Source: Escherichia coli (GTDB lineage: Bacteria > Pseudomonadota > Gammaproteobacteria > Enterobacterales > Enterobacteriaceae). Taken from it: DNA of 64,000 nucleotides. Below, in pieces: positions 16,736 to 40,039 of the stretch. The notes under the pieces were generated by a model. It did not search any database, had not been told where the DNA came from, and saw nothing but the letters and a program-made list of their open reading frames with translations. Both the position numbers and the translations under genes were made by a program. Location: the NCBI RefSeq assembly GCF_003790525.1, contig NZ_CP033635.1; one strand, 5' to 3'. How positions within the stretch are numbered: position 1 is the stretch's first letter; each line of letters starts with the position of its first letter.

Positions 16736-17054
16736 GCTTTCCCCATCTTACTTAGTCTGTCAGGCGTGGTCAGTCGCACCGGACACAATACATGATTCTG
16801 CGGTTGGCTATCGGCAAGCGTGGAGTTTAACTTGAGCATCATTAAGCACATCACAGTAACCGCTGATCATAGCAAACCCTCTGAAGGCGGAATATCAGCA
16901 AATTCCTGGAGTTATTTCAACCTATTGACTTTTAATTTGATTTGAGGATGATTATTTAATAAGTTACATAAATGTAAATAACATGCAATTCACATTGCCG
17001 AAAGCGTGTCCGATATCGCACAATAACCGCTGATTTCACAGCATAGATCCCACG

Positions 17055-17615
17055 ATGAGCAAATCATTACAAAAACCCACCATTCTGAATGTTGAAACTG
17101 TAGCCCGTTCACGACTGTTTACCGTCGAAAGCGTGGATCTGGAGTTCAGCAATGGCGTGCGGCGTGTTTATGAACGAATGCGTCCAACCAACCGGGAAGC
17201 GGTGATGATTGTGCCGATTGTGGACGATCACCTGATCCTGATCCGCGAATACGCAGTGGGAACGGAATCCTACGAATTAGGTTTTTCGAAAGGATTAATT
17301 GATCCGGGTGAAAGCGTCTACGAAGCCGCTAACCGCGAGCTAAAAGAAGAAGTGGGATTTGGTGCGAACGATCTGACTTTTTTGAAGAAGCTCAGCATGG
17401 CGCCGTCTTACTTTTCCAGCAAAATGAATATCGTGGTAGCGCAAGATCTCTATCCGGAATCGCTGGAAGGCGATGAGCCAGAGCCGCTACCACAGGTGCG
17501 CTGGCCGCTGGCGCATATGATGGATTTGCTGGAAGATCCTGACTTCAATGAAGCGCGTAATGTCAGCGCGCTGTTCCTCGTGCGCGAATGGTTGAAGGGG
17601 CAGGGGCGGTTGTAA
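17055..17615 (+). CDS. nudE: ADP compounds hydrolase NudE (Nudix)
   Basis: 186 aa; Nudix box GLIDPGESVYEAANRELKEEVG present. Confidence 0.94.
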   Translation: MSKSLQKPTILNVETVARSRLFTVESVDLEFSNGVRRVYERMRPTNREAVMIVPIVDDHLILIREYAVGTESYELGFSKGLIDPGESVYEAANRELKEEVGFGANDLTFLKKLSMAPSYFSSKMNIVVAQDLYPESLEGDEPEPLPQVRWPLAHMMDLLEDPDFNEARNVSALFLVREWLKGQGRL

Positions 17616-17628
17616 ATGCGTGAAGTTT

Positions 17629-17654
17629 GCCTGATGCATAATGCTTATCAGGCC
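17629..17654. repeat. REP-like palindromic unit (GCCTGATGCATAATGCTTATCAGGCC)
   Basis: Near-perfect palindrome with GCCTGATGC / GCTTATCAGGC arms just downstream of nudE. Confidence 0.45.
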
Positions 17655-17754
17655 TGTGCGGCTCCTGCAATATATTGATTTTTCTAGATGTTGCCAGACG
17701 GGTAAAGTGTTCACGCCGTATCCGGTATAAACAAAGTGCACTTTGTCAGCAAAC

Positions 17755-17782
17755 AGAAAAAGGCGCCGAAGCGCCTTTTTAA
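17755..17782. terminator. Bidirectional intrinsic terminator between convergent nudE and mrcA (AAAA-AGGCGC-CGAA-GCGCCT-TTTT)
   Basis: 6 bp GC stem with A-run and T-run flanks, abutting mrcA stop codon. Confidence 0.7.
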
Positions 17783-20335
17783 TCAGAACAATTCCTGTGC
17801 CTCGCCATTATCGATAATGGTCGTTCCCACCTCGTGCACCGCCTGTTGTGTCGGCTGCGTACCTTCGATGAAATACTCTTCGCGGCTGTTGCCACCATTA
17901 GCTAACTGCCCGGTGCTGCGATCGATATTCACCGTCACAATACCCGGCGGCGGCGTCAGCGGCTGCTCCGGCACACCTTCAAGAACGGCTTTCATATAAG
18001 CGTCCCATGCAGGCTGGGCACTCTTGGCACCGCCTTCGTAACCTGAGATCTGATCTTTAATCGCTCCAGAAGCCGTTGTATGACCGAGATTACGACGGTG
18101 ATCATCAAAGCCAATCCAGACCGAGGTCACAACGCCCGGACCGTAACCCGAGAACCACGCATCTTTCGAACTGTTAGTGGTACCCGTTTTTCCGCCTATA
18201 TCATGCCGTTGTAAATCACGACCTGCTCGCCAGCCAGTACCCTGCCAGCCTGGTTCACCAAAAATATTGGTGTTCAAGGCACTCTTAATCAGGAATGCCA
18301 GCGGTGTGTTGATGACGTGCGGTGCGTACTCCTGCGCGCCAGTCTTCGCCACTAACGCCTGATTTGCCTGCTCCAGCTGCGGCATTGGTACAGAAACATT
18401 CTGCTGCTCGCGGGAGATAGCGACATCTTCAACATCGTTATTTTCCAGAACGTTCGATTTCTGCGTATCACCGTAAATCACCGGAATATCGCATTCCGGG
18501 CAGGCTACTTTCGGTTTCGCTTCGAAAATCACGCCGCCCTGATCGTTTTCAATTTTGCTGATAAACCACGGGTCCACCAGGAAGCCGCCGTTCGCCATGA
18601 CCGCGTAGCCACGCGCCACCTGCATTGGGGTGAAGGACGCTGAACCCAGCGCCAGCGATTCGGTGTGGACAATGTTTTGTGCCGGGAAGCCGAAGCGTTG
18701 CAGATATTCTGCAGCGTAGTCGACGCCCATCGCCCGCATTGCGCGTACCATCACCACGTTTTTCGACTGACCCAGCCCCTGACGTAAGCGAATTGGACCA
18801 GCATATTGTGGCGGCGAGTTTTTCGGCTGCCAGTCAGAACCGGCACCTGCGTCCCAGCGAGAAATTGGCACATCGTTCAACATACTTGCCAGCGTCAGAC
18901 CTTTATCCATCGCCGCGGTGTAGAGGAACGGTTTGATGTTGGAACCCACCTGACGCAGTGCCTGGGTGGCGCGGTTAAACTTGCTCTGATTGAAATCAAA
19001 GCCACCGACCAGCGCCATAACGGCACCGTTTTGCGGATTGATCGACACCAGCGCCGAGTTCACTTCCGGCACTTGTGCCAGCCACCATGCATCGCCAACC
19101 TGACGAACCCAGATTTGCTGACCCGTTTGCAAAACATCGGTCACTTTACGCGGCGTCGGTCCCTGCTGAGTATCCGAACGGTAAGGACGCGCCCAGCGAA
19201 CGCCTTCCATACTCAATGCGACGGTCGACCCGTCCGCCAGCATCGCCGTCGCTTCCTGAGGATTGGCGCTGGTGACTGCGGCAGGCAGCAGAGGACCATA
19301 GGTCGGCAGCGCCTTCAACGTATCGGTAATCTTGTTGTTATCCCACGCCGATTCGCCCACTTTCCACAGCACATTTGCCGGGCCGCGATAGCCGTGGCGC
19401 ATGTCGTAGTCCAGCACGTTATTACGTACTGCCTGCTGTGCGGCCTGCTGTACTTTGCGGGTGATGGTGGTGTAAATGCGATAACCGTCTTCATAGGCAC
19501 TTTCGCCATAACGGTTATACATCTCCTGGCGCACCATTTCGCTCAGGTACGGCGCAGAGAAAACAATCTCCGGCGCGTGATAGTTAGCGTTAATCGCCTC
19601 AGTGTGTGTCTGATCGAACTGTTGTTGGGTGATATACCCTTCATCCAGCATCCGCGACAGTACGACGTTACGCCGCGCGACGGCACGATCCATTGAGTAG
19701 AGCGGATTAAAGGTGGAAGGCGCTTTCGGCAGCCCGGCTATCACCGCCATTTCGTTCAGCGTCAGTTGGTCGACCGTTTTACCGAAATAGACTTGTGCCG
19801 CAGCACCGACACCATAGGCGCGGTAACCGAGGTAAATCTTGTTCAGATAAAGCTCGAGGATCTCGTCTTTCGTCAGCAACTGTTCAATGCGAATCGCGAG
19901 GAAGACTTCCTTAATCTTACGCATCAGCGTGCGTTCTGGACTGAGGAAGAAGTTTCTCGCCAGCTGCTGGGTAATGGTACTCGCCCCTTGTGACGCGTGG
20001 CCGGAGAACAGCGCCACACTTGCCGCACGGAAGATCCCCACCGGGTCAACGCCGTGATGCTCGTAGAAGCGGCTGTCTTCCGTCGCGATAAAGGCTTTCA
20101 CCATCTCCGGCGGGATTTGATCCAACGTAACCGGAATACGACGTTTCTCACCGTATTGAGCAATCAGCTCGCCATCGGCGCTGTAAATCTGCATCGGAAT
20201 TTGCAGGCGAACATCTTTTAATGTCGCCACATCCGGCAGTTGTGGCTCGATGTAGCGGTATAGGCCATAAATCGAGCCTGCTCCCAGCAGAATGCAACAG
20301 ACTGCAAGGATCAAAAAATACTTTACGAACTTCAC
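17783..20335 (-). CDS. mrcA: Penicillin-binding protein 1A (bifunctional transglycosylase/transpeptidase)
   Basis: Translation recognised. Start ambiguous: GTG at 20333..20335 gives 850 aa MKFVKYFLILAV...; in-frame ATG at 20357..20359 gives 858 aa. Confidence 0.94.
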   Translation of the reverse strand: MKFVKYFLILAVCCILLGAGSIYGLYRYIEPQLPDVATLKDVRLQIPMQIYSADGELIAQYGEKRRIPVTLDQIPPEMVKAFIATEDSRFYEHHGVDPVGIFRAASVALFSGHASQGASTITQQLARNFFLSPERTLMRKIKEVFLAIRIEQLLTKDEILELYLNKIYLGYRAYGVGAAAQVYFGKTVDQLTLNEMAVIAGLPKAPSTFNPLYSMDRAVARRNVVLSRMLDEGYITQQQFDQTHTEAINANYHAPEIVFSAPYLSEMVRQEMYNRYGESAYEDGYRIYTTITRKVQQAAQQAVRNNVLDYDMRHGYRGPANVLWKVGESAWDNNKITDTLKALPTYGPLLPAAVTSANPQEATAMLADGSTVALSMEGVRWARPYRSDTQQGPTPRKVTDVLQTGQQIWVRQVGDAWWLAQVPEVNSALVSINPQNGAVMALVGGFDFNQSKFNRATQALRQVGSNIKPFLYTAAMDKGLTLASMLNDVPISRWDAGAGSDWQPKNSPPQYAGPIRLRQGLGQSKNVVMVRAMRAMGVDYAAEYLQRFGFPAQNIVHTESLALGSASFTPMQVARGYAVMANGGFLVDPWFISKIENDQGGVIFEAKPKVACPECDIPVIYGDTQKSNVLENNDVEDVAISREQQNVSVPMPQLEQANQALVAKTGAQEYAPHVINTPLAFLIKSALNTNIFGEPGWQGTGWRAGRDLQRHDIGGKTGTTNSSKDAWFSGYGPGVVTSVWIGFDDHRRNLGHTTASGAIKDQISGYEGGAKSAQPAWDAYMKAVLEGVPEQPLTPPPGIVTVNIDRSTGQLANGGNSREEYFIEGTQPTQQAVHEVGTTIIDNGEAQELF

Positions 20336-20454
20336 TGGAAATTTCCCATTTAGTTTCATTTGGGCAGTTTATAAACAAACGCGCGGTAGTATAAAGGCAA
20401 GCCAGACGCATTGATATACCCGTCAGAGTGACGGGTGATAAGGAGATCATCACA

Positions 20455-21234
20455 ATGGCATTTAAGATCTGGCAAATTGGTTTGCATTTACAACAGCAAG
20501 AAGCGGTAGCGGTTGCGATCGTGCGGGGCGCAAAAGAATGCTTTTTGCAACGCTGGTGGCGGTTGCCGCTGGAGAATGACATTATCAAAGATGGGCGGAT
20601 TGTTGATGCGCAGCGGCTGGCTAACACGTTGTTACCGTGGAGCCGCGAACTGCCGCAGCGTCATCACATTATGTTGGCGTTTCCCGCCAGTCGCACATTA
20701 CAGCGGTCATTTCCGCGCCCGTCGATGTCCCTTGGTGAGCGGGAGCAAACGGCCTGGCTGTCCGGGACGATGGCCCGTGAACTGGATATGGATCCGGACT
20801 CCCTGCGCTTCGATTACAGCGAAGACTCACTCAGTCCCGCCTATAACGTGACTGCCGCGCAAAGCAAAGAGCTGGCAACGCTGCTTACTCTGGCAGAAAG
20901 GTTGCGTGTTCATGTTAGCGCGATCACCCCGGATGCCAGTGCATTACAGCGATTCCTGCCTTTTTTACCTTCTCATCAGCAATGTCTGGCCTGGCGTGAT
21001 AACGAACAGTGGCTGTGGGCGACGCGCTATCGCTGGGGGCGCAAACTGGCGGTGGGGATGACTAGCGCGAAGGAGCTGGCGGCAGCGTTATCCGTTGATC
21101 CCGAAAGCGTCGCGCTATGTGGCGAAGGCGGATTTGATCCCTGGGAGGCCGTTTCTGTTCGTCAGCCGCCGCTACCGCCGCCAGGTGGAGACTTTGCCAT
21201 CGCGCTGGGGCTGGCGCTAGGGAAGGCGAACTGA
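20455..21234 (+). CDS. hofM: DNA utilization / competence pseudopilus assembly protein HofM (PilM-like)
   Basis: ORF-track 268 aa (GTG start) trimmed to ATG at 20455 giving 259 aa MAFKIWQIGLHL... Confidence 0.88.
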   Translation: MAFKIWQIGLHLQQQEAVAVAIVRGAKECFLQRWWRLPLENDIIKDGRIVDAQRLANTLLPWSRELPQRHHIMLAFPASRTLQRSFPRPSMSLGEREQTAWLSGTMARELDMDPDSLRFDYSEDSLSPAYNVTAAQSKELATLLTLAERLRVHVSAITPDASALQRFLPFLPSHQQCLAWRDNEQWLWATRYRWGRKLAVGMTSAKELAAALSVDPESVALCGEGGFDPWEAVSVRQPPLPPPGGDFAIALGLALGKAN

Positions 21235-21773
21235 TGAACCCGCCAATTAATTTTTTGCCCTGGCGACAGCAACGCCGGACCGCTTTTCTGCGTTTCTGGT
21301 TGCTGATGTTCGTTGCGCCTCTGCTGCTGGCCGTCGGGATTACGCTAATAATGCGTCTGACAAGCAACGCCGAAGCACGCGTAAACGCCGTTTTGCTTCA
21401 GGCGGAACAACAACTCGCTCGCAGCTTACAGATAACGAAACCACGTTTGCTGGAGCAACAGCAGTTACGCGAACAGCGTTTGCAAAGGCAGCGCCAGCGA
21501 CAATTTACCCGCGACTGGCAATCTGCGCTGGAAGCACTGGCGGCGCTTTTACCCGAGCACGCCTGGCTGACAACGATAAGCTGGCAGCAGGGAACGCTGG
21601 AGATCAAGGGGCTGACAACAAGCATTACCGCGTTAAACGCACTAGAAACGTCACTCCGCCAGGATGCATCTTTTCATCTCAATCAGCGGGGGGCCACGCA
21701 GCAGGATGCGCAGGGACGCTGGCAATTTGAGTATCAGTTAACAAGGAAGGTTAGCGATGGACATGCTCTTTGA
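21234..21773 (+). CDS. hofN: DNA utilization protein HofN (PilN-like)
   Basis: 179 aa; start overlaps hofM stop by 1 nt. Confidence 0.9.
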   Translation: MNPPINFLPWRQQRRTAFLRFWLLMFVAPLLLAVGITLIMRLTSNAEARVNAVLLQAEQQLARSLQITKPRLLEQQQLREQRLQRQRQRQFTRDWQSALEALAALLPEHAWLTTISWQQGTLEIKGLTTSITALNALETSLRQDASFHLNQRGATQQDAQGRWQFEYQLTRKVSDGHAL

Positions 21774-29575: not shown

Positions 29576-30572
29576 GCCCATCGTTTTTAGTGGCGCACAG
29601 CCCTCAGGTGAATTGACCATTGGTAACTACATGGGTGCGCTGCGTCAGTGGGTAAACATGCAGGATGACTACCATTGCATTTACTGTATCGTTGACCAAC
29701 ACGCGATCACCGTGCGCCAGGATGCACAGAAGCTGCGTAAAGCGACGCTGGATACGCTGGCCTTGTATCTGGCTTGTGGTATCGATCCTGAGAAAAGCAC
29801 CATTTTTGTTCAGTCCCACGTGCCGGAACATGCGCAGTTAGGCTGGGCACTGAACTGCTATACCTACTTCGGCGAACTGAGCCGCATGACGCAGTTTAAA
29901 GATAAATCTGCGCGTTATGCCGAGAACATCAATGCTGGTCTGTTTGACTATCCGGTGCTGATGGCTGCGGACATCCTGCTGTATCAAACTAATCTGGTAC
30001 CGGTGGGTGAAGACCAGAAACAGCACCTGGAACTGAGCCGCGATATCGCCCAGCGTTTCAACGCGCTGTATGGCGATATCTTTAAAGTGCCGGAGCCGTT
30101 TATTCCGAAATCCGGCGCGCGCGTAATGTCGCTGCTGGAGCCGACCAAAAAGATGTCCAAGTCTGACGATAACCGCAATAACGTTATCGGCCTGCTGGAA
30201 GATCCGAAATCGGTAGTGAAGAAAATCAAACGTGCGGTCACTGACTCCGACGAGCCGCCGGTAGTTCGCTACGATGTGCAGAACAAAGCGGGCGTTTCCA
30301 ACCTGCTGGATATCCTTTCTGCGGTAACGGGCCAGAGCATCCCGGAACTGGAAAAACAGTTCGAAGGCAAGATGTATGGTCATCTCAAAGGCGAAGTGGC
30401 TGATGCCGTTTCCGGTATGCTGACTGAATTGCAGGAACGTTATCACCGTTTCCGCAACGATGAAGCCTTCCTGCAACAGGTGATGAAAGACGGCGCGGAA
30501 AAAGCCAGTGCACACGCTTCTCGTACGCTGAAAGCGGTGTACGAAGCGATTGGTTTTGTGGCGAAGCCGTAA
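29568..30572 (+). CDS. trpS: Tryptophan--tRNA ligase
   Basis: 334 aa; class I aaRS KMSKS motif present (KMSKSD); overlaps gph by 8 nt. Confidence 0.97.
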
Positions 30573-30589
30573 TTTAACATTAATGCCAA

Positions 30590-30616
30590 AAACCGGGGAA
30601 ACCCGGTTTTTTTATC
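30590..30616 (+). terminator. Intrinsic terminator of the aroK-to-trpS operon (AACCGGGGAAACCCGGTTTTTTT)
   Basis: GC stem plus T7 run 18 nt after trpS stop. Confidence 0.75.
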
Positions 30617-30731
30617 CTCATTTGCAATAATCCGAAAAAATGTGAAGCACCTCGCCGTTTCCACATCTCACAGTTGCCACTTATCTTCATTTTAATGAAG
30701 ATATAAACATTCATTTTATTGAAAATATATT

Positions 30732-31637
30732 ATGCGTCGAACGTTTATCAAAAAAGAAGGCGTCGTTATCACGACACTGGCCCGTTATTTGTTGGGTGAA
30801 AAGTGCGGTAATCGACTGAAAACCATAGATGAGCTGGCAACTGAATGCCGTTCATCGGTTGGCCTGACGCAGGCCGCGTTGAAAACGCTGGAATCAAGCG
30901 GAGCGATACGGATTGAACGCCGTGGGCGCAATGGCAGTTATCTGGTCGAGATGGATAACAAAGCATTGCTGACTCATGTAGATATCAACAATGTGGTGTG
31001 CGCGATGCCCTTGCCCTATACCCGTTTGTACGAAGGCCTGGCGAGCGGATTGAAAGCTCAGTTTGATGGTATTCCTTTTTACTATGCGCATATGCGCGGC
31101 GCGGATATTCGCGTGGAGTGTTTACTTAACGGCGTGTATGACATGGCGGTTGTTTCCCGACTGGCGGCGGAAAGTTATCTCACGCAAAAAGGCTTATGCC
31201 TCGCGCTGGAGTTGGGGCCGCACACCTACGTTGGCGAGCACCAGTTGATTTGCCGTAAAGGCGAGTCCGCAAACGTGAAGCGCGTGGGGCTGGATAACCG
31301 TTCGGCGGATCAGAAAATCATGACCGATGTCTTTTTTGGCGATAGTGATGTGGAACGTGTCGATCTCTCTTATCACGAGAGTTTACAACGCATTGTTAAA
31401 GGCGATGTCGATGCGGTGATCTGGAACGTGGTGGCGGAAAACGAACTGACCATGCTGGGATTAGAAGCGACGCCGCTCACAGACGATCCGCGATTTTTAC
31501 AGGCCACCGAAGCCGTGGTTTTGACGCGAGTCGATGATTACCCGATGCAACAATTGCTGCGTGCAGTTGTTGATAAACAGGCCCTGCTTGCCCATCAACA
31601 ACGAGTGGTCAGTGGGGAACAGGAACCCAGTTATTAA
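30732..31637 (+). CDS. yhfZ: Uncharacterized protein YhfZ (putative regulator)
   Basis: 301 aa; translation recognised as YhfZ. Function is not something I can derive from sequence. Confidence 0.85.
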   Translation: MRRTFIKKEGVVITTLARYLLGEKCGNRLKTIDELATECRSSVGLTQAALKTLESSGAIRIERRGRNGSYLVEMDNKALLTHVDINNVVCAMPLPYTRLYEGLASGLKAQFDGIPFYYAHMRGADIRVECLLNGVYDMAVVSRLAAESYLTQKGLCLALELGPHTYVGEHQLICRKGESANVKRVGLDNRSADQKIMTDVFFGDSDVERVDLSYHESLQRIVKGDVDAVIWNVVAENELTMLGLEATPLTDDPRFLQATEAVVLTRVDDYPMQQLLRAVVDKQALLAHQQRVVSGEQEPSY

Positions 31638-31653
31638 ACGAAAGGCATCTGAA

Positions 31654-32016
31654 ATGGAAACCAGACTCAACCTGCTTTGCGATGCAGGCGTTATTGATAA
31701 GGACATCTGCAAAGGCATGATGCAGGTCGTCAACGTACTGGAAACAGAGTGTCATCTACCGGTGCGCAGCGAGCAAGGAATGATGGCGATGACACATATG
31801 GCGAGCGCACTGATGCGCAGTCGCCGCGGTGAAGAAATAGAGCCGCTGGATAACGAATTGCTGGCAGAACTGGCGCAATCCAGCCACTGGCAAGCCGTTG
31901 TGCAATTGCATCAGGTGTTGTTGAAGGAATTTGCACTGGAAGTTAACCCGTGTGAAGAAGGCTATTTGCTGGCCAACCTTTATGGATTATGGATGGCTGT
32001 TAACGAAGAGGTTTGA
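31654..32016 (+). CDS. yhfY: Uncharacterized protein YhfY
   Basis: ORF-track 160 aa trimmed to ATG at 31654 giving 120 aa METRLNLLCDAGVIDKDICKG... Confidence 0.8.
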   Translation: METRLNLLCDAGVIDKDICKGMMQVVNVLETECHLPVRSEQGMMAMTHMASALMRSRRGEEIEPLDNELLAELAQSSHWQAVVQLHQVLLKEFALEVNPCEEGYLLANLYGLWMAVNEEV

Positions 32017-32099
32017 AGCTCCCGACAAATCCACGTCGCACAACCTAAATATTCAAAAAAATGAATATTTAATTCAAGGAACAGAAACGAGGCAACAAG

Positions 32100-33263
32100 A
32101 TGTTTGTAGAAGCATTGAAACGCCAGAACCCGGCGCTAATTTCCGCCGCACTAAGTTTGTGGCAAAAGGGCAAGATCGCCCCGGACAGCTGGGTGATCGA
32201 CGTGGATCAGATACTGGAAAACGGTAAGCGGCTGATTGAGACGGCGCGGCTTTACGGCATTGAACTGTATCTGATGACCAAGCAGTTTGGTCGTAATCCG
32301 TGGCTGGCGGAAAAATTGCTGGCATTAGGCTACAGCGGCATTGTGGCGGTGGATTACAAAGAGGCGCGAGTCATGCGCCGCGCTGGTTTGCCGGTGGCGC
32401 ATCAGGGGCATCTGGTACAAATCCCTTGTCATCTGGTTTCTGACGCCGTTGAACAGGGAACTGATGTCATCACCGTGTTTACTCTCGACAAAGCGCGGGA
32501 AGTTTCTGCGGCAGCGTTGAAGACCGGACGTGTGCAGTCTGTGCTACTCAAAGTTTATAGCGACGATGATTTTCTTTATCCGGGCCAGGAGAGCGGTTTT
32601 GCCCTCCAGGTGTTGCCGGAGATTGTCGCCGAAATCCAGAATCTGCCGGGGTTACATTTGGCGGGACTTACCCATTTCCCTTGCCTGCTTTGGGATGAAG
32701 CTGTCGGGAAAGTTTTGCCGACACCGAATCTTCACACGCTGGTACAAGCACGGGATCAACTGGCGAAATCTGGTATTGCGATTGAGCAACTGAACGCGCC
32801 TTCAGCGACCAGCTGCACTTCGCTGCCATTGCTGGCGGAATACGGTGTGACTCATGCCGAACCCGGTCATGCGCTGACGGGCACTATTCCGGCAAACCAG
32901 CAGGGCGATCAGCCTGAACGTATCGCGATGCTCTGGTTAAGTGAAATCTCCCATCATTTCCGTGGCGACAGCTACTGCTACGGCGGCGGTTACTACCGTC
33001 GTGGTCACGCGCAACATGCGCTGGTGTTTACGCCAGAAAATCAAAAGATTACTGAAACCAATCTCAAAACTGTGGATGACAGCAGTATCGACTACACCCT
33101 GCCGCTGGCAGGCGAGTTTCCGGTAAGCAGTGCAGTAGTGCTCTGTTTTCGCACGCAGATTTTTGTCACCCGTAGCGATGTGGTGTTGCTGTCCGGTATT
33201 CACCGTGGCGAACCGGAAATCGTCGGTCGTTATGACAGTCTTGGAAACTCTCTGGGGGCGTAA
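32100..33263 (+). CDS. yhfX: Putative PLP-dependent amino-acid racemase-like protein YhfX
   Basis: 387 aa; translation recognised as YhfX (alanine racemase fold by recall). Confidence 0.88.
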
Positions 33264-34489
33264 TGGCGCGATTTGTGGTGTTAGTGATTGATAGCTTTGG
33301 CGTAGGCGCAATGAAAGATGTCACGCTGGTGCGTCCACAGGATGCCGGGGCGAATACTTGTGGTCACATCCTGAGCCAGCTGCCGCATTTGCAGCTACCA
33401 ACGCTGGAGAAGTTGGGGCTAATCAACGCATTGGGTTATGCGCCAGGTGATATGCAGCCGTCAGACTCCGCAACCTGGGGTGTGGCAGAGCTGCAACATG
33501 AAGGTGGCGATACCTTTATGGGGCATCAGGAAATTTTAGGCACGCGCCCGTTACCACCGCTGCGGATGCCTTTTCGCGATGTGATTGACCGTGTTGAGCA
33601 GGCATTAGTTTCCGCCGCTTGGCAGGTGGAGCGCCGTGGCGAAGAGTTGCAATTTCTGTGGGTCAATCAGGCGGTTGCGATTGGCGATAATCTCGAGGCG
33701 GATTTAGGCCAGGTCTATAACATCACCGCCAATCTCTCTGTGGTCTCTTTTGACGACGCAATCAAAATTGGTCGTATCGTGCGTGAGCAGGTACCGGTCG
33801 GGCGGGTCATTACATTTGGCGGCCTGTTAACCGACAGTCAACGCATTCTCGATGCCGCAGAAAGCAAAGAAGGGCGCTTTATTGGCATCAACGCGCCGCG
33901 TTCTGGCGCTTATGACAACGGTTTCCAGGTCGTGCATATGGGCTATGGCGTCGATGAAAAAGTGCAGGTACCACAAAAACTGTATGAAGCAGGCGTGCCA
34001 ACCGTGCTGGTGGGTAAGGTGGCAGATATCGTCAACAATCCTTATGGCGTGAGCTGGCAAAACCTGGTGGATAGCCAGCGGATTATGGATATCACCCTCG
34101 ACGAATTTATCACCCATCAGACAGCGTTTATTTGCACCAACATTCAGGAAACCGACCTCGCTGGTCACGCAGAAGACGTCGCACGTTATGCTGAACGTTT
34201 GCAGGTCGTTGACCGTAATCTTGCTCTCCTGGTTGAGACGATGCAGCCAGATGATTGCCTGGTCGTGATGGCGGATCACGGTAACGATCCGACAATCGGT
34301 CACAGCCACCATACCCGCGAAGTCGTGCCGGTGCTGGTTTATCAGCAAGGCCTGGCTGCCACGCAGCTTGGTGTTCGCACCACGCTCTCCGATGTGGGCG
34401 CTACCGTGTGTGAATTCTTCCGTGCGCCACCGCCACAAAATGGTCGCTCTTTTCTTTCCTCCCTCCGGTTTGCAGGAGACACCCTATGA
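33263..34489 (+). CDS. yhfW: Phosphopentomutase-like metalloenzyme YhfW
   Basis: 408 aa; 1 nt overlap with yhfX stop. Confidence 0.88.
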
Positions 34490-35364
34490 GTTTTGATCCG
34501 ACGGGTTACACCCTGGCCCATGAGCATCTGCATATTGATCTTTCCGGCTTTAAAAACAACGTGGACTGCCGCCTTGATCAGTATGCGTTCATTTGCCAGG
34601 AGATGAACGACCTGATGGCCCGGGGCGTGCGTAATGTGATTGAAATGACCAACCGTTACATGGGGCGCAATGCGCAATTTATGCTCGATGTAATGCGTGA
34701 AACCGGGATCAACGTGGTGGCCTGTACCGGTTATTACCAGGACGCGTTTTTCCCGGAACATGTGGCGACCCGCAGCGTGCAGGAACTGGCGCAGGAGATG
34801 GTCGATGAAATTGAGCAGGGTATCGATGGCACTGACCTGAAAGCCGGAATTATCGCGGAGATCGGCTCCAGCGAAGGGAAGATTACGTCGCTAGAAGAGA
34901 AGGTGTTTATTGCCGCCGCGCTGGCGCATAACCAGACCGGACGCCCGATCTCCACGCATACGTCGTTCAGCACGATGGGGCTGGAGCAACTGGCTCTGTT
35001 GCAAGCCCACGGAGTTGATCTTTCGCGCGTCACCGTCGGCCACTGCGATCTGAAAGACAATCTCGACAACATTTTGAAGATGATCGATCTCGGCGCGTAT
35101 GTGCAGTTCGACACCATCGGCAAGAACAGTTACTACCCGGACGAAAAGCGGATTGCGATGCTCCATGCGCTACGTGACCGTGGGTTGCTGAACCGCGTCA
35201 TGCTGTCGATGGATATTACGCGGCGCTCTCATTTAAAAGCCAACGGTGGTTATGGCTATGACTTTTTATTGACCACCTTTATTCCGCAATTGCGCCAGTC
35301 AGGATTCAGTCAGGCCGATGTGGATGTGATGTTACGTGAAAATCCCTCTCAATTTTTCCAATAA
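34486..35364 (+). CDS. php: Phosphotriesterase homology protein (amidohydrolase superfamily)
   Basis: 292 aa; 4 nt overlap with yhfW. Confidence 0.9.
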
Positions 35365-35374
35365 GGACAGACTC

Positions 35375-35728
35375 ATGAAAAAGATTGGTGTTGCAGGCTT
35401 ACAGCGTGAGCAGATTAAAAAAACCATTGAAGCGACGGCTCCTGGCTGTTTTGAAGTTTTCATTCATAACGACATGGAAGCGGCGATGAAAGTGAAATCC
35501 GGGCAACTGGATTACTACATCGGCGCGTGTAATACCGGTGCGGGCGCGGCATTGTCGATTGCCATCGCGGTGATTGGCTATAACAAAAGTTGCACCATTG
35601 CCAAACCAGGCATTAAAGCGAAAGACGAGCATATCGCCAAAATGATCGCTGAAGGAAAAGTGGCGTTTGGCCTTTCCGTTGAGCACGTCGAACACGCGAT
35701 TCCGATGCTGATTAACCATCTGAAATAA
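35375..35728 (+). CDS. yhfU: Uncharacterized protein YhfU
   Basis: ORF-track 130 aa trimmed to ATG at 35375 giving 117 aa MKKIGVAGLQREQIKK... Confidence 0.82.
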   Translation: MKKIGVAGLQREQIKKTIEATAPGCFEVFIHNDMEAAMKVKSGQLDYYIGACNTGAGAALSIAIAVIGYNKSCTIAKPGIKAKDEHIAKMIAEGKVAFGLSVEHVEHAIPMLINHLK

Positions 35729-35739
35729 AAGGCACGACT

Positions 35740-37044
35740 ATGGATCTGTATATTCAGATTATCGTGGTGGCGTGCCTGACGGGTATGACATCGCTTCTGG
35801 CGCATCGCTCGGCAGCCGTTTTTCATGACGGTATCCGCCCGATCCTGCCGCAACTGATTGAAGGCTATATGAACCGTCGCGAGGCGGGGAGTATCGCTTT
35901 TGGTCTGAGCATTGGTTTTGTGGCCTCGGTGGGGATCTCTTTTACCCTGAAAACCGGGCTGCTCAACGCATGGTTACTCTTTCTTCCTACCGATATCCTC
36001 GGCGTACTGGCGATAAACAGCCTGATGGCGTTTGGTCTTGGCGCTATCTGGGGCGTGTTGATCCTTACTTGCCTGTTGCCGGTAAACCAGCTGCTGACCG
36101 CGCTACCGGTGGATGTATTAGGTAGCCTCGGGGAATTAAGCTCGCCGGTGGTTTCAGCTTTTGCACTCTTCCCGCTGGTGGCGATTTTCTACCAGTTTGG
36201 CTGGAAGCAAAGTCTGATCGCCGCCGTGGTGGTACTGATGACCCGCGTGGTCGTCGTGCGCTATTTCCCACATCTTAACCCTGAATCCATCGAAATCTTT
36301 ATTGGTATGGTGATGCTGCTGGGGATCGCGATAACTCACGACCTGCGTCATCGTGATGAAAATGACATTGATGCCAGCGGGCTTTCGGTGTTTGAAGAAC
36401 GCACGTCACGGATTATCAAAAACTTACCGTATATCGCCATCGTGGGAGCATTGATTGCCGCCGTTGCCAGCATGAAGATTTTCGCCGGTAGTGAAGTGTC
36501 GATCTTCACTCTGGAGAAAGCGTACTCCGCAGGCGTAACGCCGGAACAATCGCAAACACTAATCAACCAGGCAGCTCTGGCGGAATTTATGCGCGGGCTG
36601 GGTTTTGTGCCGATGATTGCCACCACCGCGCTAGCCACCGGCGTGTATGCAGTTGCGGGCTTTACCTTTGTTTATGCGGTGGGCTATCTCTCGCCGAATC
36701 CGATGGTTGCAGCGGTATTAGGCGCAGTGGTTATTTCGGCGGAAGTCCTGCTGCTTCGTTCGATCGGCAAATGGCTGGGGCGCTACCCGTCGGTGCGTAA
36801 TGCGTCGGATAACATCCGTAACGCCATGAATATGCTGATGGAAGTGGCGTTGCTGGTCGGTTCGATCTTTGCAGCAATCAAAATGGCGGGCTATACCGGA
36901 TTCTCTATCGCAGTTGCCATTTACTTCCTCAACGAATCCCTGGGCCGTCCGGTACAGAAAATGGCGGCACCGGTCGTGGCAGTAATGATCACCGGTATTC
37001 TGCTGAATGTTCTTTACTGGCTTGGCCTGTTCGTTCCGGCTTAA
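35740..37044 (+). CDS. yhfT: Inner membrane protein YhfT (putative transporter)
   Basis: 434 aa, multi-pass hydrophobic; translation recognised. Confidence 0.88.
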   Translation: MDLYIQIIVVACLTGMTSLLAHRSAAVFHDGIRPILPQLIEGYMNRREAGSIAFGLSIGFVASVGISFTLKTGLLNAWLLFLPTDILGVLAINSLMAFGLGAIWGVLILTCLLPVNQLLTALPVDVLGSLGELSSPVVSAFALFPLVAIFYQFGWKQSLIAAVVVLMTRVVVVRYFPHLNPESIEIFIGMVMLLGIAITHDLRHRDENDIDASGLSVFEERTSRIIKNLPYIAIVGALIAAVASMKIFAGSEVSIFTLEKAYSAGVTPEQSQTLINQAALAEFMRGLGFVPMIATTALATGVYAVAGFTFVYAVGYLSPNPMVAAVLGAVVISAEVLLLRSIGKWLGRYPSVRNASDNIRNAMNMLMEVALLVGSIFAAIKMAGYTGFSIAVAIYFLNESLGRPVQKMAAPVVAVMITGILLNVLYWLGLFVPA

Positions 37045-37055
37045 GGAAGGCACCT

Positions 37056-38141
37056 ATGAAGACGTTTCCTCTGCAAAGCCTGACGCTTATTGAGGCGCAG
37101 CAAAAGCAGTTTGCGCTGGTGGATAGCATTTGTCGCCATTTTCCCGGCAGCGAGTTTCTTGCTGGCGGTGATTTAGGCTTAACGCCGGGGCTGAATCAAC
37201 CGCGCATTACCCAGCGAGTGGAACAGGTGCTGGCTGATGCATTTCACGCACAGGCTGCAGCGCTGGTACAGGGCGCGGGTACTGGCGCGATCCGTGCGGC
37301 GTTGGCGGCTTTGCTCAAACCGGGGCAGCGTCTTCTGGTGCATGACGCGCCTGTTTACCCGACGACTCAGGTCATTATTGAGCAGATGGGGCTGACGCTT
37401 ATTACTGCTAATTTCAATGACCTGTCGGCACTTAAGCAGGTCGTCGACGAGCAACAACCGGATGCGGCGCTGGTGCAGCATACGCGCCAGCAGCCGCAGG
37501 ACGGCTACATTCTGGCAGATGTGCTGGCAACGTTGCGCTCGGCAGGTGTTCCAGCCTTAACCGATGATAACTATGCGGTGATGAAGGTGGCGCGCATTGG
37601 CTGTGAATGCGGGGCGAATGTCTCGACATTTTCCTGCTTCAAGCTATTTGGGCCAGAGGGTGTTGGCGCGGTGGTAGGCGATGCCGATGTTATTAGCCGG
37701 ATTCGCGCCACGCTCTATTCCGGCGGCAGCCAGGTTCAGGGCGCGCAGGCGCTGGAAGTCTTGCGTGGTCTGGTGCTCGCGCCAGTGATGCACGCGGTGC
37801 AGGCGGGGGTATCTGAACGGTTGCTGGCTTTGCTTAACGGCGGCGCGGTGGCGGAAGTGAAAAGCGCCGTCATTGCCAATGCACAGTCGAAGGTATTGAT
37901 TGTGGAGTTTCATCAGCCGATTGCCGCCAGAGTGCTGGAAGAGGCGCAGAAACTCGGTGCCTTGCCTTACCCGGTTGGTGCAGAGTCGAAATATGAAATC
38001 CCGCCGCTCTTTTATCGACTTTCCGGAACGTTTCGCCAGGCGAATCCGCAGTTAGAACATTGCGCGATTCGCATTAACCCAAATCGCAGCGGTGAAGAGA
38101 CGGTATTGCGGATTTTGCGCGAGAGTATTGCCGACGTTTAA
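37056..38141 (+). CDS. yhfS: Putative PLP-dependent enzyme YhfS
   Basis: 361 aa; translation recognised. Confidence 0.88.
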   Translation: MKTFPLQSLTLIEAQQKQFALVDSICRHFPGSEFLAGGDLGLTPGLNQPRITQRVEQVLADAFHAQAAALVQGAGTGAIRAALAALLKPGQRLLVHDAPVYPTTQVIIEQMGLTLITANFNDLSALKQVVDEQQPDAALVQHTRQQPQDGYILADVLATLRSAGVPALTDDNYAVMKVARIGCECGANVSTFSCFKLFGPEGVGAVVGDADVISRIRATLYSGGSQVQGAQALEVLRGLVLAPVMHAVQAGVSERLLALLNGGAVAEVKSAVIANAQSKVLIVEFHQPIAARVLEEAQKLGALPYPVGAESKYEIPPLFYRLSGTFRQANPQLEHCAIRINPNRSGEETVLRILRESIADV

Positions 38142-38171
38142 TTCTGGGAACGATGTTTTTCGAAGAGTATG

Positions 38172-38207
38172 GAGAAAAAATACGCCCTCGGAAAATCTCG
38201 AGGGCGT
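38172..38207 (-). terminator. Intrinsic terminator downstream of yhfL (stem CGCCCTCG / CGAGGGCG, T-run on minus strand)
   Basis: 8 bp GC stem 38183..38206 with A-run 38172..38181 on plus strand (T-run on minus). Confidence 0.55.
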
Positions 38208-38247
38208 CAGGCAATTAAATCAGCATCTGCCAATTTCTGTCAGAGAC

Positions 38248-38415
38248 TTACTGTGCAGTAGGACCGCAACCGCCAATGATTTTAGAAATAGAAATAGCTG
38301 GGTGCAGCAGGTAGTCGTAAGAGCAGTTCTTATCACGGTTTTCAATATGACCAGTACATGCAGTTAACGTAGCCAGTACCGCACCTACCAGTGCAACTTT
38401 AATAAATTTGTTCAT
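38248..38415 (-). CDS. yhfL: Small lipoprotein YhfL (55 aa)
   Basis: Hand-translated minus-strand ORF: MNKFIKVALVGAVLATLTACTGHIENRDKNCSYDYLLHPAISISKIIGGCGPTAQ (lipobox LTAC). Below ORF-track size cutoff. Confidence 0.88.
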   Translation of the reverse strand: MNKFIKVALVGAVLATLTACTGHIENRDKNCSYDYLLHPAISISKIIGGCGPTAQ

Positions 38416-38629
38416 TTACATTCCCTATGTATTATATATTGATTAATATTCATTGATTATATGAATATAAGCAGACTGCTCATTAAGAATGATACAGGAA
38501 TATTTAATTGGCGTCAGTGAACGAATGACTTAATTTTGTAAGTCGCTGTAACGGTGAATATAACCCATTAGCAGATAATATTTATTAAGGGGGGTATTTT
38601 TATCTGCTGAATATATAAAGAGAGTTGTA

Positions 38630-38656
38630 AACGAAAAAGGCCAGAATTCTCTGGCC
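38630..38656 (-). terminator. Intrinsic terminator of nirBDC-cysG operon (stem GGCCAGA / TCTGGCC, T-run on minus strand)
   Basis: 7 bp stem 38639..38656, AAAAA on plus strand at 38634..38638, 10 nt downstream of cysG stop. Confidence 0.6.
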
Positions 38657-38665
38657 CTGGTTAAA

Positions 38666-40039
38666 TTAATGGTTAGAGAACCAGTTCAATTTATCGCGCA
38701 GGCCAACAACCCGACCAATAATAATTAGCGATGGACTGTTCATTTGCTGCGCCAGTTCGCCCAGCTGCGTGAGCGTACCGTCAATCACGCGCTGCGTGAC
38801 TGCCGTTCCGTTTTCGACAATTGCCACCGGCATTTCGCCAGGCATACCGTGTTCAATCAGCTTTTGCTGAATAGTCGCGGCCTGATTCAACCCCATATAG
38901 AACACCAGCGTCTGTTTTTCTGCCGCCAGGTTTTCCCAGTCCAGTTCGCCACCGGTTTTTAAGTGTCCGGTAATTAAGCGTACGCTCTGGGCATAATCGC
39001 GATGCGTGAGCGGAATACCCGAATAGGCAGAGCAACCAGAAGCTGCGGTAATACCCGGAACCACCGAGAACGGAATGCCTGCATTGCACAGTGTTTCCAG
39101 CTCTTCGCCACCACGGCCAAAAATAAACGGATCGCCGCCTTTCAGTCGCACCACGCGTTTGCCTTTTTGCGCTTCCCGCAGCAGGATCTGGTTAATCTCT
39201 TCCTGCGGTACGCAGTGGTATCCCGCGCGTTTGCCGACGAAAACGCGATCAGCATCGCGGCGTACCAGATTCATAATATCGTCAGAAACCAGACGGTCGT
39301 AGACCACCACATCTGCCTGCTGAATTTGTTGCAGTCCTTTCAGTGTCAGCAGCCCGGCATCGCCCGGACCTGCGCCAACCAGCACCACTTCACCGCGATG
39401 GTCGAGCGGTTCGTTGATTAATTGTTCGGTCGTTTCAGTAATGGCTTTCTGATCGTTGTTTGCCAGCGACTGCGCCAGACGGTCATTAACGAACAGTTTT
39501 TCCCAGAAACGGCGACGTTCACCCATTGTGGCGAACTGTTGTTTCACTCGACCGCGTAATTGCCCGGCGTATTTCGCTACCTGGCCCAGATGCAACGGCA
39601 GCAGTGATTCAAGTTTTTCACGCAACAGGCGTGCCAGAACCGGAGAGGTGCCGCCAGAGGAGACCGCGACCATGAGCGGTGAGCGGTCAATAATTGACGG
39701 CATAATAAAGCTGGCGGCTTTCGGCGCATCGACCACGTTACAGAAGATGCGACGAGCTTCAGCGGCTTCACTGACGCGCTGGTTAAGCGCGTCATCATCT
39801 GTCGCTGCAATCGCCAGCCAGCAGGTGTCGAGAAGGCTTTCATCAAATGGCCCTTCGACGAGGGTTAACATGCCTGCATCTGCCCATGCGGTGAACTGTG
39901 GAATAAACGCTAATGCATTCACCGTTAAGCGAGCGCCTGCGTCTAACAGCAACCTTGCTTTGCGTTCCGCGACATCACCACCGCCGACAATCAGACAGTC
40001 GCGATCGCGTAATTGGCAAAATATAGGCAAATGATCCAC
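38666..40039 (-). CDS. cysG: Siroheme synthase (uroporphyrinogen-III methyltransferase / precorrin-2 dehydrogenase / ferrochelatase)
   Basis: 457 aa; translation recognised. Confidence 0.96.

Follow-up and report, generated by a model that had tools for sequence, protein, structure and literature searches.

The yhfZ-yhfY-yhfX-yhfW-php-yhfU-yhfT-yhfS gene cluster of Escherichia coli raises the question of what its eight products accomplish together. Of 5426 complete E. coli genomes, no fewer than 5058 carry at least 80% of the cluster. Crystals of Php date from the 1990s, and the structures of YhfZ, YhfX, YhfS and Php are structural-genomics entries labelled 'uncharacterized' or 'homology protein'. 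We examined the cluster in a 64,000-nucleotide stretch of E. coli DNA (contig NZ_CP033635.1; hereafter the window), for which a preliminary description had proposed a single operon serving the catabolism of a possibly phosphorylated or amino-sugar-like substrate, while noting that the substrate is not established. The last point still holds, as a full-text literature search returned no biochemical assignment and found the yhf genes mentioned incidentally in tables or screens.

Here we report that the cluster is the E. coli version of a gene set shared across phyla and linked to the phosphoenolpyruvate:sugar phosphotransferase system (PTS). On balance we favour, by a modest degree, a self-contained and widely conserved catabolic module coupled to the PTS, in which a nitrogen-containing, sugar-like compound would be processed via a phosphorylated intermediate. 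Whereas the gene annotation and the four structures were already known, the cross-phyla core, a candidate operator, the PTS link and the fold of YhfU are new.

Organization of the cluster

The eight genes lie co-directionally on the + strand at 30732-38141, and their coordinates match both the list of open reading frames (ORFs) and the RefSeq annotation. The segment 30500-38400 (7.9 kb) is 100% identical to the reverse strand of E. coli SMS-3-5 (NC_010498.1), from which the RefSeq gene names were taken in the order given above; the ORF list agrees on the frames, and the shorter annotated starts of yhfY (31654) and yhfU (35375) are backed by alignments of orthologues. The genes are as follows, with PLP for pyridoxal phosphate and PRD for PTS regulation domain.

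30732-31637, + strand: yhfZ, regulator whose N-terminus forms a GntR/FadR-type winged helix and whose C-terminal, ligand-binding domain is specific to YhfZ (NF041241, PDB 2ozz)
31654-32016, + strand: yhfY, 120-residue stand-alone PRD with no DNA- or RNA-binding domain (PF00874, E-value 9e-4)
32100-33263, + strand: yhfX, fold-type III (alanine-racemase-fold) PLP enzyme of the YhfX family (PF01168, E-value 5e-22; PF21279; PDB 4kbx)
33263-34489, + strand: yhfW, phosphopentomutase paralogue, a metalloenzyme of the alkaline-phosphatase superfamily (NF009049, 731 bits)
34486-35364, + strand: php, phosphotriesterase-homology protein, a binuclear-metal amidohydrolase (NF007373, 651.9 bits, cut-off 486)
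35375-35728, + strand: yhfU, DUF2620 protein of 117 residues with a predicted RpiB/LacAB-like alpha/beta fold and an invariant Cys52 loop (AlphaFold2 model)
35740-37044, + strand: yhfT, polytopic membrane protein of the YhfT family, a presumed permease (PF10797, E-value 5e-180)
37056-38141, + strand: yhfS, fold-type I PLP enzyme, an optional module member (PDB 4j8l)

The tight packing reported earlier was reproduced to the nucleotide (nt): yhfZ and yhfY are separated by 16 nt and yhfY and yhfX by 83 nt, yhfX overlaps yhfW by 1 nt and yhfW overlaps php by 4 nt, and the gaps php-yhfU, yhfU-yhfT and yhfT-yhfS measure 10, 11 and 11 nt. The family assignments of the preliminary description also stood: its regulator is of the GntR type, its racemase-like PLP enzyme has the alanine-racemase fold, its phosphopentomutase-like enzyme is a paralogue of that mutase, its amidohydrolase belongs to the phosphotriesterase (PTE) family, and a membrane protein and a fold-type-I PLP enzyme complete the set. 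It had overlooked that YhfY is a PRD and that YhfU is a separate small soluble protein, and it had missed the PTS link, which is the strongest functional clue.

A module conserved across phyla

Homologous loci were gathered with a 10-sequence YhfT alignment as the anchor, and their gene content was determined by tblastn with the eight E. coli proteins. The 80 loci recovered in this way come from Enterobacterales, Vibrionaceae, Sebaldella, Clostridia and Bacilli. They share a recurring set of yhfZ, an ORF for a PRD protein of about 120 residues, php, yhfU, yhfT, yhfX and yhfW, arranged in at least four gene orders, and yhfU stands directly 5' of yhfT in every locus that has it. More distant, metagenomic YhfT homologues (27-30% identity) adjoin DUF2620, PTE, YhfX-like, Metalloenzyme and PRD genes. 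This constant membership despite a shuffled order goes far past what chance would produce and argues strongly that the genes are functionally coupled and not unrelated, and the conservation of the module across phyla bears out the earlier proposal of a single catabolic unit in the functional sense. None of the module versions examined included a kinase gene.

Not every member is equally constant. The yhfS gene is optional, being absent from Vibrionaceae, Pluralibacter and Yersinia, where it is missing in all loci. In several Yersinia species (loci L034, L035, L039, L040, L041, L044 and L045) yhfW is also gone from between yhfX and php, while it is kept in Y. nurmii (L037); either the pathway tolerates the lack of a mutase in these species or it is decaying there.

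Linkage to the phosphotransferase system

A PRD protein is encoded in nearly every module, and the general PTS proteins HPr and/or Enzyme I are encoded in or beside the module in six lineages (L070, L074/L076, L077, L088, L089 and L093). Enzyme I lies directly 3' of yhfW in L070 (TIGR01417, 738 bits) and adjacent to the module in L089, HPr lies directly 3' of yhfW in L077, L074 and L076, and both proteins are encoded inside the cluster of L088. Two fusions join PTS-related domains to module members. In L088 the C-terminal part of the DUF2620 protein is a PRD, which can be aligned end to end with YhfY and has the same four invariant residues. In L093 a Php-like protein shares one chain with an HPr domain, recognisable by its GLHARP signature (63.4 bits on TIGR01003, cut-off 47.9).

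The four residues in question, H48, A52, R55 and E101, are invariant in an alignment of 17 YhfY sequences from five lineages, and YhfY orthologues match the PRDs of GlcT and LicT. Clostridia-type and metagenomic (L082, L088) sequences retain a second histidine, close to the C-terminus, where Gammaproteobacteria have an asparagine. An antiterminator of the BglG/LicT type was considered and rejected for YhfY, which has a single PRD in 120 residues where a CAT domain and two PRDs are required.

A complete Lac/Cel-type PTS operon, encoding Enzyme II components B, C and A (EIIB-EIIC-EIIA) together with a DUF7916 protein, stands beside the module in six Vibrionaceae loci (L047, L055, L059, L060, L067 and L068), in varying position and orientation; in L050 and L053 an EIIC homologue alone lies beside the module. 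The operon was located at 4258-7153 in L047, 16451-19300 in L055, 17211-20113 in L059 and 3127-6015 in L067, and its DUF7916 protein (296 residues) shows a weak hint of a DeoC/LacD aldolase.

Candidate operators and transcription units

YhfZ scores 373.5 bits on NF041241 (cut-off 260). Its profile yields winged-helix matches to FadR, CodY and GntR at residues ~20-90, and its C-terminus marginally resembles solute-binding proteins. The structure 2ozz spans residues 74-301, and the C-terminal domain is one specific to YhfZ, the classical effector domains of GntR regulators being those of FadR, HutC/UTRA, MocR and YtrA. A GntR/UTRA regulator takes the place of YhfZ in some distant modules. A pattern search revealed three candidate binding sites for YhfZ.

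30683-30702, no strand: candidate YhfZ operator box 1, ATCTTCATTTTAATGAAGAT, before yhfZ, its offset kept in Enterobacteriaceae
30707-30726, no strand: candidate YhfZ operator box 2, ACATTCATTTTATTGAAAAT, 24 bp from box 1, its TTCA-N6-TGAA core ending 9 nt before the yhfZ ATG
32049-32068, no strand: candidate YhfZ operator box 3, ATATTCAAAAAAATGAATAT, in the yhfY-yhfX gap, a perfect palindrome ATATTCA-N6-TGAATAT

With one mismatch allowed, the pattern ATnTTCA-N6-TGAAnAT has three matches in the 64-kb window against 0.16 expected, all of them before yhfZ or yhfX. An equivalent of box 3 occurs about 35 nt 5' of yhfX in Escherichia, Citrobacter, Klebsiella and Trabulsiella, and one also precedes yhfX in Vibrio barjaei. 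When the core TTCA-N6-TGAA was counted within 150 nt 5' of the first cluster gene (background about 0.01 per 150 nt), at least one box was present in 29 of 31 Enterobacteriaceae-like loci, 6 of 12 Yersiniaceae-like loci, 16 of 23 Vibrionaceae loci and the single Sebaldella locus, which has three identical copies. Judged from their sequence and placement, the palindromes are candidate operators that YhfZ would bind to control two adjacent promoters, and we hold with moderate confidence that YhfZ acts through them as a repressor of both.

The presence of the third palindrome inside the 83-nt yhfY-yhfX gap points to a second regulated promoter before yhfX. An operon table reproduced in PMC4448311 likewise groups php, yhfS, yhfT, yhfU, yhfW and yhfX without yhfZ or yhfY. 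The suggestion of one operon thus survives as one functional unit, which is probably transcribed as two YhfZ-controlled units, yhfZY and yhfXW-php-yhfUTS. A scan for consensus promoters and terminators gave counts no higher than in shuffled sequence and is uninformative on operon structure. A sigma-54 promoter was rejected: the 45 matches found equal the 45 expected, and the intergenic regions of the cluster have none at up to one mismatch. A riboswitch or antiterminator RNA is unsupported, since an Rfam scan of 30000-38800 in E-value mode found no RNA family.

The Lac/Cel operon of Vibrionaceae probably shares the YhfZ regulon, because a YhfZ-type palindrome lies 48-70 nt 5' of the EIIB gene in five of the six complete operons. 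In two Photobacterium species, moreover, a second paralogue of yhfZ, with 48-49% identity to the E. coli protein, stands divergent from the Lac/Cel operon and has a palindrome of its own about 10 nt 5' (~20583-21269 in L059 and ~20622-21293 in L060). Genes for OmpC/OmpF/PorB-like porins lie directly 5' of yhfZ in two of the six loci with the complete operon, from Photobacterium and Vibrio (5362-6420 in L059 and 6087-7214 in L067), which suggests a dedicated outer-membrane channel for the substrate.

Enzymes of the cluster and the class of substrate

Every enzyme of the cluster scores below the cut-off of every characterised equivalog model in NCBIfam. The solved relatives nearest to YhfX are alanine racemase (E-value 1e-4) and D-threonine aldolase (E-value 5e-3), and with 25 bits on the ornithine racemase model (cut-off 480) no named activity can be assigned to it. 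YhfS has distant relatives in the Cys/Met gamma-lyase/synthase and cysteine-desulfurase groups (best PDB profile match, E-value 3e-10); its 24 NCBIfam matches are all far below cut-off (Met gamma-lyase 38 against 550), and its Pfam domain matches are partial. Php belongs to the PTE family PF02126, and PDB entries 1bf6 and 4lef are near-identical orthologues (E. coli Php; E-value ~1e-194). It stays well short of the characterised subgroups, scoring 97.8 on the OPH model (cut-off 500) and 97.4 on the phospho-furanose lactonase model (cut-off 630).

YhfW speaks for a phosphorylated intermediate. Aligned to the phosphopentomutase (PPM) of Bacillus cereus (3m8w), it keeps the catalytic threonine (GGDT) and all metal-ligand motifs, the two proteins sharing DS-G-G, GxDT-GH-E, D-x-GH-D, ADHGNDP and HTRE. 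The substrate-binding middle aligns poorly with PPM, and YhfW stays below the deoB cut-offs (TIGR01696, 144.8 against 341.2 bits; NF003766, 181.7 against 256) so that the YhfW-specific model NF009049 is the only one passed.

The most likely class of substrate is an amino-sugar, amino-aldonate or lactone-type compound, possibly freed from a larger glycoside. NagB, the glucosamine-6-phosphate deaminase, is encoded directly 3' of the module in two Bacilli (L073, 15797-17333, above the NCBIfam cut-off; L075, ~15823-16659). Other hints come from a Cof-type sugar phosphatase of L082, from an amidase-signature gene within the Sebaldella module, from dehydrogenases in distant versions and, in Vibrionaceae, from the porin and Lac/Cel PTS genes. 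The earlier idea that the substrate is phosphorylated or resembles an amino sugar is a fair conjecture in view of the retention of every phosphopentomutase catalytic residue in YhfW and the position of NagB in the two Bacilli. A gene of the ComB-like 2-phosphosulfolactate phosphatase family was also observed 3' of the module in L073.

YhfU and YhfT

An AlphaFold2 model of YhfU built from a 29-sequence alignment reached a pLDDT of 95.6, compared with 43.5 for a single-sequence run, and its best structural matches are the RpiB/LacAB isomerases. Residues G50, C52, G55 and G57 are invariant within the motif DYYIGAC-N-T/S-G-x-G, which forms the loop from strand 3 to helix 3; the catalytic Cys-Gly-Thr-Gly-x-Gly of RpiB presumably occupies the same loop position. 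At the level of sequence the resemblance is slight. YhfU falls below the Pfam threshold for LacAB_rpiB (PF02502, E-value 0.16 over 30 residues), and its hhalign alignment to an RpiB sequence, which is not significant (E-value 0.054), places C52 and T54 on RpiB C66 and T68. In the same alignment RpiB His99 and Asn100 are not conserved and the C-terminal phosphate-binding segment is absent, and YhfU, at 117 residues, is shorter than RpiB (~150) by 30 or more. By its modelled structure, YhfU is RpiB-like in fold yet is not a canonical RpiB.

YhfT has about 10-12 hydrophobic segments and belongs to a small family, with 305 clusters at 50% identity among 1.84 billion representatives. In L086 (8001-9978), L087 and one more contig, all without the rest of the module, a remote homologue of 27% identity has an MtnN-type 5'-methylthioadenosine/S-adenosylhomocysteine nucleosidase as its partner; some members of the YhfT family may carry nucleoside-like substrates.

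A role of YhfU as phospho-carrier or transporter partner is attractive because of its invariant cysteine in a glycine-rich loop at the N-terminus of a helix, its constant pairing with YhfT and its fusion to a PRD in one lineage. One possibility, which we put forward tentatively and consider less than even in probability, is that YhfU and YhfT constitute a previously unrecognised PTS Enzyme II. In such a system YhfU would be an RpiB-fold carrier charged by HPr on Cys52, possibly without an EIIA, YhfT would represent a new family of EIIC-like permeases, and YhfY would read the phosphorylation of the carrier for YhfZ.

A proposed mechanism

The binding, phosphotransfer and enzymatic steps that we infer would run as follows. 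YhfZ would bind the two tandem palindromes before yhfZ and the one before yhfX, controlling yhfZY and yhfXW-php-yhfUTS, and YhfY, by way of His48, would inform YhfZ or the transporter of how the PTS relay is phosphorylated. The substrate would be taken up by YhfT with YhfU, its obligatory small partner with the RpiB-like fold and Cys52, and would gain a phosphate derived from phosphoenolpyruvate (PEP) through Enzyme I and HPr; given the intact phosphomutase site of YhfW and the absence of a linked kinase, this is the simplest reading of where the phosphate comes from. We have moderate confidence in a phosphorylated intermediate bearing PTS-derived phosphate and in YhfY, through His48, tying regulation to the relay.

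The chemistry of its family suggests that Php could act as a hydrolase on the phospho-intermediate, at a lactone, lactam or N-acyl bond; characterised relatives open phospho-sugar lactones, and mammalian PTER cleaves the N-acyl bond of N-acetyltaurine. YhfW would move the phosphate between two hydroxyls through a phospho-threonine enzyme, and YhfX might carry out PLP chemistry at an amine-bearing carbon, by racemisation or epimerisation or by elimination or retro-aldol cleavage. YhfS, where present, might contribute a PLP-dependent elimination or deamination. Our confidence in these reaction steps of Php, YhfW, YhfX and YhfS is low, as it is in the unconventional Enzyme II role of YhfT and YhfU.

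Several observations weigh against a PTS-coupled module of this kind. No EIIA was identified in any module, and a complete PTS chain to YhfU and YhfT is not visible. As a Lac/Cel EIIC, YhfT was rejected at an hhalign probability of 0.1%; its profile has no match among PDB sequences at an E-value of 10 or less, and no NCBIfam match. None of the comparisons made assigns YhfT or YhfU to a recognised Enzyme II family. The TTCA-N6-TGAA box occurs in none of the 10 Bacillota loci. The loss of yhfW in several Yersinia and of yhfS in many lineages means that the proposed order of enzymes is not obligatory, and the class of substrate is drawn from weak hints in the neighbourhood, none of which identifies the compound. 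Finally, the linkage to HPr, Enzyme I and PRD proteins could be purely regulatory.

Alternative explanations

The last point underlies the rival that survives best, although we consider it unlikely. It holds that YhfT is a conventional ion-coupled permease and YhfU an RpiB-type isomerase or a ligand-binding subunit, that the PTS acts in regulation only (YhfY, HPr and Enzyme I serving catabolite control), and that an unlinked kinase supplies the phosphate or the substrate enters the cell in phosphorylated form. The structural matches of YhfU to RpiB/LacAB isomerases, with its Cys-x-Thr/Ser-Gly-x-Gly loop at the site of the RpiB catalytic cysteine, fit this explanation, as do the lack of detected similarity between YhfT and known EIIC proteins and the lack of an identified EIIA. 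So do sugar ABC-transporter genes found beside the modules of L093 (ATPase, permease and binding protein) and L090 (permease gene), on account of which a different importer may operate in these two versions. It must be set against this that YhfW needs a phosphorylated substrate, yet no kinase is linked in any lineage, and that the HPr-Php and DUF2620-PRD fusions of L093 and L088 are hard to explain by global catabolite control alone. YhfU, moreover, lacks the ring-opening His/Asn and the C-terminal phosphate-binding segment of RpiB, as far as the two sequences can be aligned.

Less probable again is a salvage pathway of the pentose or nucleoside type, with YhfW as a pentose 1,5-phosphomutase and YhfU as a pentose-5-phosphate isomerase acting on an unusual, for example aminated, ribosyl compound whose nitrogenous part would be processed by the PLP enzymes and Php. 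Such a pathway would make sense of the intact PPM catalytic apparatus of YhfW, the RpiB-like fold of YhfU and the ribose type of the ABC transporter adjoining L093 and of the permease gene adjoining L090. The pairing of a YhfT homologue with an MtnN-type nucleosidase in three contigs can be read in the same way, but it comes from one remote lineage without the rest of the module, and the canonical module has no phosphorylase or nucleosidase. The deoB equivalog score of YhfW (144.8 against 341) and the poor alignment of its middle part with PPM also speak against a pentose substrate, as does the dispensability of yhfW in several Yersinia.

It is very improbable that the cluster is an accessory arm of the catabolism of fructoselysine and other Amadori products tied to the frl genes, a connection hinted at in the preliminary description, which placed the two side by side. 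The frlRDCBA genes do lie immediately 3' of yhfS in K-12-type E. coli, but they are convergent with yhfS and have their own regulator, FrlR, and the window lacks frl while its yhf cluster is intact. At the other loci looked at, neighbour annotations and family scans contained no frl names, no search specific to frl having been run. That the genes share no common function and are merely adjacent in E. coli, as the lack of promoter or terminator signals above shuffled expectation might permit, is scarcely credible and effectively refuted by the comparative data, in which the same six or seven families co-occur across phyla in rearranged order and are fused to one another.

Comparison with known systems

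The PTS-coupled module that we favour would work much as other catabolic operons linked to the PTS do. In the Ula/Sga system for L-ascorbate in E. coli, the PTS UlaABC is followed by the lactonase UlaG and downstream enzymes. Both systems pair a small soluble protein with a membrane protein of ~430-460 residues, both are placed under a dedicated repressor, for yhf the candidate repressor YhfZ, and in both a ring-opening hydrolase is proposed to act on a phospho-intermediate generated by the PTS. Unlike the Ula components, YhfT and YhfU show no detected similarity to any PTS family model or solved PTS structure; the yhf hydrolase has a PTE fold in place of a metallo-beta-lactamase fold, no EIIA is present, and two PLP enzymes and a phosphomutase are added. 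The D-glucosaminate (Dga) pathway likewise couples PTS-type uptake to PLP chemistry, by which an amino-sugar acid in phosphorylated form loses its nitrogen. The SelA family, of which DgaE is a member, is weakly matched by one YhfS-like protein. The Dga operon, in contrast, depends on sigma-54 and DgaR, whereas no sigma-54 site is enriched at yhf; the permease components are not homologous, and the yhf module has no aldolase but a lactonase-type hydrolase and a mutase.

Genes for phospho-sugar lactonases of the PTE family lie in PTS-containing operons. The family members Lmo2620, Bh0225 and Mycoplasma MS53_0025 and Mag6390 are reported to act on phosphorylated sugar lactones (PMC10971088, citing Korczynska 2014). 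Php shares their amidohydrolase subfamily; its 97 bits on the phospho-furanose lactonase equivalog, which has a cut-off of 630, put it in a different subgroup. Mammalian PTER hydrolyses N-acetyltaurine and N-acetyl-beta-alanine (PMC11374699, PMC13311154). This eukaryotic enzyme has a helical insertion (PMC12873775) and no operon context, and the glutamate E169 is among the residues modelled as binding its metals (PMC11374699). PTER ('phosphotriesterase-related') is named after the same family as Php and is likened to it here by name, without direct comparison; it shows that this branch can hydrolyse small N-acyl amides bearing an anionic group. The relation to DeoB, RpiB and LacAB is one of parts, YhfW having the catalytic threonine and manganese-ligand motifs of PPM and YhfU the RpiB fold with its cysteine loop.

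PRDs are phosphorylated by HPr or EIIB, coupling gene expression to PTS transport (PMC8560693). YhfY has a conserved histidine and arginine in common with the PRD-containing antiterminators LicT/BglG and activators MtlR, LevR and ManR; it differs from them in having a single PRD and no RNA- or DNA-binding, EIIA-like or EIIB-like domain, and DNA binding would be supplied by YhfZ. Its best NCBIfam match is TIGR03582 (27 bits, cut-off 69), a model from the EF_0829/AHA_3910 cluster. That cluster encodes a small PRD protein, small proteins and membrane proteins of no assigned function, a SelA-like PLP enzyme and an amidohydrolase. YhfU and YhfT match none of its models, and the resemblance is analogous, not demonstrably homologous. 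What distinguishes the yhf module is thus its non-canonical pair of membrane and small protein, its stand-alone PRD with a separate DNA-binding protein, its PTE-fold hydrolase, PPM paralogue and one or two orphan PLP enzymes, and the absence of an EIIA.

Boundaries and neighbourhood of the locus

Two hairpins delimit the cluster in the window.

30588-30611, + strand: intrinsic terminator of trpS, AAAAACCGGG-GAAA-CCCGGTTTTT followed by a T run, a perfect 10-nt inverted repeat that forms the upstream boundary of the cluster
38182-38207, - strand: GC-rich hairpin and T run, terminator of the convergent yhfL, with a 9-bp stem of 7 GC pairs, forming the downstream boundary

The downstream hairpin may also end read-through out of yhfS. 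The preliminary description had placed the cluster next to the variable frl locus; this describes K-12 and does not apply here, as yhfS directly precedes yhfL (- strand) and cysG in the window, which has no frl at this site, and frlRDCBA is located between yhfS and yhfL only in K-12-type strains. The frlABCDR genes form a presence/absence polymorphism with a clean junction, as seen by comparing 38142-38700 of the window with 15773-21259 of the K-12-type locus L094. At the other end of the cluster, the spacer between trpS and yhfZ is 159 nt in the window (30573-30731) compared with ~289 nt in L094 (8074-8362), about 130 bp longer. A published grouping lists yhfZ with genes that have a BIME-type element upstream (PMC2965389), and such a repeat before yhfZ would account for the difference in length.

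Fusions of YhfT to Php, YhfU or YhfS domains were encountered in E. coli database proteins P0002, P0005, P0012, P0018, P0076 and P0109 at 98-100% identity. These are most likely artefacts of frameshifts or gene calling across the 10-11-nt gaps, unlike the genuine Php-HPr and DUF2620-PRD fusions of distant lineages.

Significance

The yhf cluster is one of the better-conserved blanks in the 'y-ome' of E. coli, and the comparison across genomes yields handles on it in the form of a regulator with a defined candidate operator, two candidate phospho-acceptors (Cys52 of YhfU and His48 of YhfY) and a predicted dependence on Enzyme I and HPr. If YhfU and YhfT do represent a new type of Enzyme II, the catalogue of PTS families would grow. 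Even if they do not, the module would constitute a compact and widespread route by which gut and marine bacteria use a nitrogen-containing, carbohydrate-like nutrient.

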